Shown: positions 59,915-60,348 of the stretch, piece by piece
How positions within the stretch are numbered: position 1 is the first letter of the stretch
Layout: each line of letters starts with the position of its first letter
Assembly (NCBI RefSeq): GCF_006345805.1
Contig: NW_021835475.1
Location: 5,189 to 69,188, forward strand
Length of the DNA stretch: 64,000 nt
Direction of reading: 5' to 3'
Source of the DNA: Octopus sinensis
Lineage: Eukaryota
Made by a program: the position numbers and the translations under genes
The notes under the pieces: model-generated
Told to the model about the DNA's origin: nothing
What the model saw: only the letters and a program-made list of their open reading frames with translations
The model's database searches: none

Positions 59915-60276
59915 TAAACAAAATTAAATTGAACTGCTCTGATTAGGATTCGAACCTGATGCGAAAGGACGTCAAGTATCAACTTAAAACAAAGTTGCAC
60001 CGGCATGGCCGCGATTCGAACCTGACACCGAGAATATCTTAGTTAACTTAAAAAAATAAAAAAAATAAGCTTAACTGCTATGGCTAGGATTCGAACCTGA
60101 TGCCAAAAGACGTCAGAATTTATTTTGAAACAAAATGAAGATGCACTGCCATGAACAGGATTCGAACCTGAAGTCGTAGGATATCTAGAATTAACTTACA
60201 ATAAAACTACCTAGCAAGGATTTTGTAGAGAAGCCGAAGAATATCTGAATTATTCTAAAACAAAATGAAATTAGAC
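59915..60276 (-). repeat. Tandem array (about 60-75 bp period) of tRNA-His 3' fragment plus trailer; four copies with intact B-box, one degenerate
   Basis: gattcgaacctg occurs at 59947, 60013, 60088 and 60159 and in the tRNA at 60289. Each is preceded on + by acceptor-like tgcc/tgct and an A-run. A degenerate unit lies near 60219. Confidence 0.85.
60257..60265 (-). terminator. RNA polymerase III T-run terminator of tRNA-His
   Basis: TTTTGTTTT on the minus strand about 11 nt after the discriminator base. Confidence 0.7.
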
Positions 60277-60348
60277 TGCCGTGACCAGGATTCGAACCTG
60301 GGTTACCACGGCCACAACGTGGGGTCCTAACCACTAGACGATCACGGC
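60277..60348 (-). tRNA. tRNA-His (GUG)
   Basis: Minus strand GCCGTGATCGTCTAGTGGTTAGGACCCCACGTTGTGGCCGTGGTAACCCAGGTTCGAATCCTGGTCACGGCA. Perfect 7-bp acceptor stem, D-arm, CCACG/CGTGG anticodon stem with GTG, CCAGG/CCTGG T-arm and discriminator A. Matches the canonical metazoan tRNA-His. Confidence 0.97.

Follow-up and report, generated by a model that had tools for sequence, protein, structure and literature searches.

Gene-external B-boxes are reported for Dictyostelium discoideum, in which they lie about 41 bp downstream at 66% of the tRNA genes (PMC3159450). In Saccharomyces cerevisiae, the extragenic box B of SNR6 lies past the terminator and is reported to act with the A-box via TFIIIC, the two being 202 bp apart (PMC9136082). 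The S. pombe elements IR-L and IR-R each carry five TFIIIC-bound B-boxes (PMC7474672). These elements and the ETC/COC sites are described as B-boxes without an A-box that are occupied by TFIIIC in the absence of polymerase III and do not form the tail of a tRNA gene, and the ETC/COC sites stand apart from polymerase III genes (PMC7474672, PMC6829894, PMC12409998).

The window, which is the whole stretch of 64,000 nucleotides of Octopus sinensis DNA analysed here, contains a single tRNA according to ARAGORN and Rfam. This is an intact tRNA-His(GTG) gene at 60277..60348 on the minus strand, with its internal B-box intact at 60288-60298. On its 3' side lies a tandem array of five units (u0-u4, 60-75 bp each) derived from the gene's 3' end. 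Four of the units retain CAGGTTCGAATC, and the nearest one, u0, has lost it. The external boxes match GTTCRANNC on the same strand, 110-320 nt behind the gene, which has retrocopies. As described, the Dictyostelium type is alike in having the B-box consensus downstream of a tRNA gene with its own internal box and no A-box beside it; it is a closer precedent than the ETC sites, and the original prediction, which relied on the latter, did not include it. The two differ in position (about 41 bp there, about 110 nt past the gene end here) and in frequency (66% of genes there, 10 of the 214 surveyed here). Unlike the Dictyostelium type as reported, the octopus array has up to four boxes in tandem, and its origin as a duplicated gene tail is visible. 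As in SNR6, a B-box lies past the terminator, and the first intact one is about 160 bp from the A-box; SNR6 is described as depending on a single external box, whereas tRNA-His keeps its internal box and has four more. Counting the gene's own box, there are five here, the number reported for each S. pombe IR element. However, the boxes of the array are sites predicted from sequence, and they adjoin an intact tRNA gene with retrocopies. The array thus appears to resemble gene-external B-boxes and five-box boundaries but differs from them in position, in frequency and in not standing alone. No animal case of duplicated tRNA 3' ends with conserved B-boxes was found in the openly available part of the literature; gene-external B-boxes are already known from Dictyostelium and yeast SNR6, and the array is most plausibly a multiplied form of them in an animal.

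Each unit consists of tRNA positions 50-73 followed by trailer. The gene's own trailer (60231..60276, minus strand, as are all units) has two T4 runs, at 60262-60265 and 60257-60260, which are the likely terminator. Unit u0 follows at 60171..60230, and its B-box core (60218-60230) is broken here and in both paralogous loci described below. Intact 13-bp cores are present in u1 (60100..60170, core 60158-60170), u2 (60025..60099, core 60087-60099) and u4 (59893..59958, core 59946-59958, distal end approximate). The core of u3 (59959..60024, core 60012-60024) carries C62G, and two of its four T-stem pairs are lost. Units u1-u4 each have their own T-run. The first intact box, in u1, is 130 bp from the B-box of the gene.

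The spacings of 66, 75, 71 and 130 bp given in the original prediction were reproduced, and the 130-bp gap was resolved into the extra unit u0, the core of which was replaced by clustered, length-preserving substitutions at all three paralogous loci. Loss of this core by a 5-nt deletion was ruled out, since the alignment shows substitutions. The claimed identity of the core in the tRNA and four copies also held: GGTTCGAATC is exact at 60289-60298 in the gene and at 60159-60168, 60088-60097, 60013-60022 and 59947-59956 in the array. With at most one mismatch, it has seven matches in the window versus 2.34 expected, and none of 100 shuffles got to seven. The conserved block covers 13-14 nt (tRNA positions 50-63), so it extends slightly past the minimal B-box. 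As had been noted, ...GAATCG is found in the copy at 60012-60024, and the copies were rightly said to be without an A-box, with no match to four relaxed patterns in 59890-60276. The later duplication of a dimer that had been proposed is plausible from 73% identity over 81 nt at a spacing of 141 bp, but its support in the tree is weak (bootstrap 53 and 42). A G+C-rich 29-bp minisatellite (58-bp dimer, 7-9 units) is located at 59537-59787, about 100 bp beyond the distal end of the array, and an inverted pair of a common dispersed repeat lies at 60589-60744 and 60928-61148, just upstream of the tRNA-His gene.

Searching the octopus genome itself (2.72 Gb; 40 of 101 candidates scored) revealed the array at at least three loci, which are the window, L002 (C11265) with u0 and two intact units, and L003 (C25) with u0, one intact unit and two units with T54C. 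The 22-nt T-arm pattern had 46 exact matches in the genome, and 58 His-like copies were examined. The three loci are homologous between about -100 and the end of the array, and outside this range their similarity is no higher than that of shuffles. The shared 5' flank (60349..60450, minus strand, about 100 bp) is 83% and 75% identical over its first 60 bp. In two other samples (contigs 11 and 26; compared by eye), the flank of L002 was found beside the window's own flank, so L002 is a paralogue and not an allele. In the u0 of L002, some of the trailer has given way to a perfect 18-bp inverted repeat that encloses a 5-nt loop, which looks by eye like a template switch. In the paralogues, u0 is 11-12 bp longer than in the reference.

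In four sequencing runs of close relatives (three organism labels, three studies), the array and its boxes are covered entirely or for the most part. Two of them, X2 and X3 from one study, have one base different from the window. A single core change was seen in the relative X5: T60G in u2 (60089), at a free position of the consensus, on one contig with a depth of 5.9. By manual count, there was 1 change in 52 core bases versus about 8 events in about 300 others in these near-identical sequences, which hence have little power, and the arrays of the relatives show presence, not constraint. At 60201-60216, relatives X4 and X5 have a longer u0 allele with clustered differences.

The original prediction called for a depletion of substitutions in the core relative to the flanks, and a deficit of about eightfold was found, with two internal controls. 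In the nine intact units of the three loci, 3 parsimony events fell on the 13 core columns and 99 on the 53 others, at a rate ratio of 0.12 (p = 5.5e-7 by binomial test and 2.5e-4 by best-window permutation). The tree for event counting was built without the core columns. The four intact units of the window alone had 1 event in 13 core columns versus 68 in 58 others, and the five paralogue units alone, which were retrieved by whole-stretch similarity independent of the core, had 2 in 13 versus 58 in 52 (p = 1.9e-4). When u0 was added to the intact units, the core/flank ratio was 0.38 (p = 2e-4). Two caveats are that the final five letters of the core were used to delimit the units and that the T-rich spacer is possibly misaligned. 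The second was addressed with halved branch lengths and by comparing the core with the gap-free 11-nt acceptor strand, for which the ancestral state is known (3 versus 22 events in the nine intact units, p = 1.4e-5). On terminal branches only, a count that removes the advantage of intact cores in seeding duplications, 2 core events were observed versus 19.8 expected (P = 6e-7; 3e-3 with halved branch lengths). The CpG of the core, said earlier to survive in the intact copies, is kept in 9/9 intact units across the three loci, whereas an acceptor CpG 12 nt off is kept in 1/9. Positions 50, 51, 59 and 60 vary no more than those of the consensus, though the minimal B-box does not require them.

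The motif is not resistant to mutation, since the broken core of u0 has drifted at the flank rate since its loss (rate ratio 0.85) and the B-boxes of drifted His copies are not spared. Sixteen distinct drifted whole-gene His copies had 14/208 differences in the core versus 65/944 elsewhere, and the values for eight His retrocopies were 2/104 and 15/472.

As had been claimed, the most likely target of selection is the DNA motif and not an RNA fold, because the array has no A-box and no fold, T-stem pairs are lost without compensation, and two retrocopies end at the first T-run. The fold of the array region had a z of -0.79, and 20 of 100 shuffles were equally stable. C50 is kept in 9/9 intact units and the C50-G64 pair is broken in 5/9; no compensatory changes for broken T-stem pairs were seen in the nine units. 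The structure of human tauB gives base contacts in the B-box, and by our own mapping of the reported contacts, they correspond to tRNA positions 53, 55, 56, 57, 61 and 62 (PMC11811891). By the same mapping, G52A and T54C, which make up two of the three core changes in the genome, and T60G in the relative miss the contacted bases, and C62G in u3 falls on one. T54C, present in two units of L003, breaks the GTTCRANNC consensus.

A search for the same design beside other tRNA genes had also been suggested, and we found it at His, Leu, Asn and Ile genes. Our survey of 214 tRNA genes, retrieved through the sequence of the gene body, included 48 His, 69 Asn and 25 Leu-CAA-like genes among others; it covers few isotypes and is no genome census, and 19 of the genes are on contigs suspected to be foreign. 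Ten genes (about 5%) have a downstream 3'-end copy carrying a B-box, namely L001-L003 and L072 (His), L140 (Asn), and L141, L170, L179, L181 and L182 (Leu-CAA). A further copy with a B-box, at L151 (Ile), came from a pattern search. These copies suggest about six independent origins in the genome (His twice, Leu twice, Asn and Ile); L141 and L170 share one old copy by eye. Outside the His family, the core had 6/77 differences versus 19/77 in the acceptor strand (p = 0.008), a comparison biased by copy detection, and copies detected without the B-box gave 2/33 versus 6/33 (p = 0.26). One old Leu copy has C61T.

Two matches of a B-box-free scan, L222 and L307 (14/20, in the unbiased set), had no B-box and no upstream likeness and were dropped as chance; if real, they would be 3'-end copies without a B-box. 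L294 (+396, 6/11) was dropped likewise. As a mirror control, 211 genes were scanned for copies of the 5' end; a single case (L078) was convincing, and seven matches of 14-15/20 as well as microsatellite matches were dropped as chance. The difference between 3' and 5' copies, five origins versus one, is not significant (p = 0.11). Paired and triple B-box pattern searches gave mostly SINE tandems, minisatellites and whole-gene arrays among the matches listed; the inspected loci, at most 30 per search, were classed, and the others were assessed, if at all, by their match entries.

Twelve His copies (L004, L006, L007, L018, L083-L085, L087, L089 and L091-L093) were classed as retrocopies by their repeat tail. 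They look chimeric, with the pre-tRNA up to the T-run followed by a repeat 3' tail, and from their leaders and trailers both the gene of origin and its terminator can be recognised. L004 and L006 match the leader and trailer of the window's tRNA-His gene (25 and 24/26 letters) and stop at the first T-run, which indicates that this gene is transcribed in the germ line with the transcript ending before the array. When retrocopies were taken as a proxy of expression, 4/12 came from the 4/46 genes with extra boxes (p = 0.016); without the young C1 cluster, the values were 3/9 versus 3/14 (p = 0.30), with no clear rise.

The array is real and beyond chance, and its cores are probably selected at the DNA level. 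We give a probability of roughly 45% to the reading that the external cores are candidate TFIIIC sites past the terminator, which would help the adjacent tRNA-His gene to stay open and be reloaded. Tandem copying of the gene's T-arm, acceptor strand and trailer created the array, and while the units drifted, selection would have kept their B-box cores as gene-external TFIIIC sites. A passing polymerase may displace TFIIIC from the internal box and spare a box past the terminator, so that spare TFIIIC just beyond the terminator would keep the gene open and quickly reloaded. Displacement of TFIIIC during transcription is reported in vitro (PMC12409998). An external box could plausibly serve an upstream A-box, because that of yeast SNR6 acts over 202 bp. 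The benefit to the adjacent gene is the least supported part of this explanation. C62G on a contacted base, T54C off the consensus and the boxless nearest unit speak against it, and most surveyed genes do without external copies (44 of the 48 His genes included). It is possible that u0 lost its box through interference at 70 bp, though the box is retained at +74 and +83 in the Asn and Leu copies.

The cores may instead bind TFIIIC with an outward effect, as a barrier or roadblock against heterochromatin, methylation, neighbouring transcription or read-through of weak T4 runs. We consider this somewhat doubtful. Core conservation fits it equally well, 54% of the window is self-repeated DNA, and the S. 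pombe IR elements offer a five-box precedent (PMC7474672). The T-run in each of u1-u4 also fits, as does the presence of only T4 runs at two of the three array-bearing His loci. The long T-runs of L003, L072, L140 and L151, however, mean that the loci do not have weak termination in common, and termination at the first T-run is evident from the two retrocopies. The original prediction placed the boundary next to POP5. A POP5/Rpp14-family exon was detected by profile search at 53799..53957 on the plus strand (E = 8.8e-6; a motif search gave nothing), about 5.9 kb from the array, on the opposite strand and convergent with the tRNA gene. The same profile search found no POP5-family match on the contigs of L002 and L003, and the flanks beyond the array are not shared, which weakens a boundary specific to POP5; with paralogues in unrelated flanks lacking POP5, there is no shared neighbour that needs shielding. 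That the cores are TFIIIC sites in either manner, serving the gene or forming a barrier or roadblock, seems likely.

The array could also be neutral debris from a duplication hotspot at the T-arm edge, with exchange between intact cores and a bias in spotting arrays. Four of the six origins begin at tRNA positions 50-52, two of them young, which points to a mutational bias (the Leu copies extend further up). The copies are few and unevenly distributed, the box of u0 was lost, the genome abounds in tandem duplications at tRNA genes, and the relatives show no core depletion, at low power. Against this, duplication seeded by cores shields internal branches only, and the terminal branches keep the deficit; the paralogues found by whole-stretch similarity show it too, and the motif mutates freely in drifted gene copies and in u0. 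If other His genes converted the cores, the neighbouring acceptor strand should be repaired as well, yet this strand has drifted. Neutral duplication explains the clustering of breakpoints and not the terminal-branch deficit, and we regard it as improbable overall.

We think it quite improbable that the 13-14-mer serves another reader, such as a different DNA-binding protein, a mobile-element decoy or a T-loop in read-through RNA. In favour of it, invariance extends beyond the minimal B-box, and a 2-bp T-loop could still form, with G53-C61 pairing in 9/9 intact units and G52-C62 in 7/9. The lack of compensatory changes and of a fold argues against it, as do the position of the array past the T-run at which retrocopies end, the lack of foreign DNA between units and, weakly, RNA runs that hold at most 0.05 of the words of the array stretch.

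Bacterial integrative elements leave tRNA 3'-end repeats with foreign DNA between the copies. These att scars are alike in being displaced tRNA 3'-end copies starting near the T-arm, but such an origin was rejected, as the spacers of the array align to the gene's own trailer. A tRNA-derived SINE or whole-gene tandem (no A-box, a single tRNA in the window, three loci among the 40/101 candidates scored) and a structured RNA or T-arm mimic (no conserved pairing, compensatory change or stable fold) were rejected as well.

A wider suggestion, which we put forward tentatively, is that in this animal lineage, tRNA genes may repeatedly gain TFIIIC docking arrays by duplication of their 3' ends, starting from a hotspot at the edge of the T-arm, with selection stripping the copies to the B-box. 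Individual tRNA genes would thereby have a dial that can evolve and be counted, and the arrays may reveal how solo B-box (ETC) and Dictyostelium-type external sites arise. The origin of solo B-boxes has been called elusive, in a statement about rDNA boxes (PMC3159450), and a route to them from a tRNA tail is visible here. Retention versus departure of TFIIIC during transcription, and its reloading, have been called open (PMC12409998). The genome offers identical tRNA bodies with 0, 1, 2 or 4 intact external B-boxes and unique leaders and trailers, so that occupancy, output and barrier strength can be measured directly as a function of the number of boxes. If the array is neutral, it is a curious duplication hotspot of small interest.

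Several minor observations were made in the searches. The loci L287 and L288 (C9300 and C10777) are intronless POP5-family ORFs, and L199-L210, L218 and L220-L223 are tRNA matches; their contigs have 32-40% G+C and neither microsatellites nor host repeat tails, and likely stem from another organism present in the assembly. Tandem whole-gene tRNA arrays with a period of 150-170 bp lie at C1:210436064-210440018, C5:18.29-18.40 Mb, C12:22.954-22.963 Mb and C9:76.06 Mb; those on C1, C5 and C12 include Thr-AGT, Asp and Cys, and the C9 array was not typed. L319 and L320 (C2:3.12-3.15 Mb), found by the B-box pattern and therefore biased, are decayed duplicates of tRNA-Arg(ACG) with a B-box, one with a drifted 5' half and the other with its A-box fused to the T-arm by a deletion. 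L142 (C10904:28343-28807) is a tandem repeat of about 90 bp with a B-box-like motif per unit and no tRNA call. L164, L168, L183 and L185 belong to a dispersed repeat family that is not tRNA and has an internal 93-bp tandem with the motif GGTTCAATAC.
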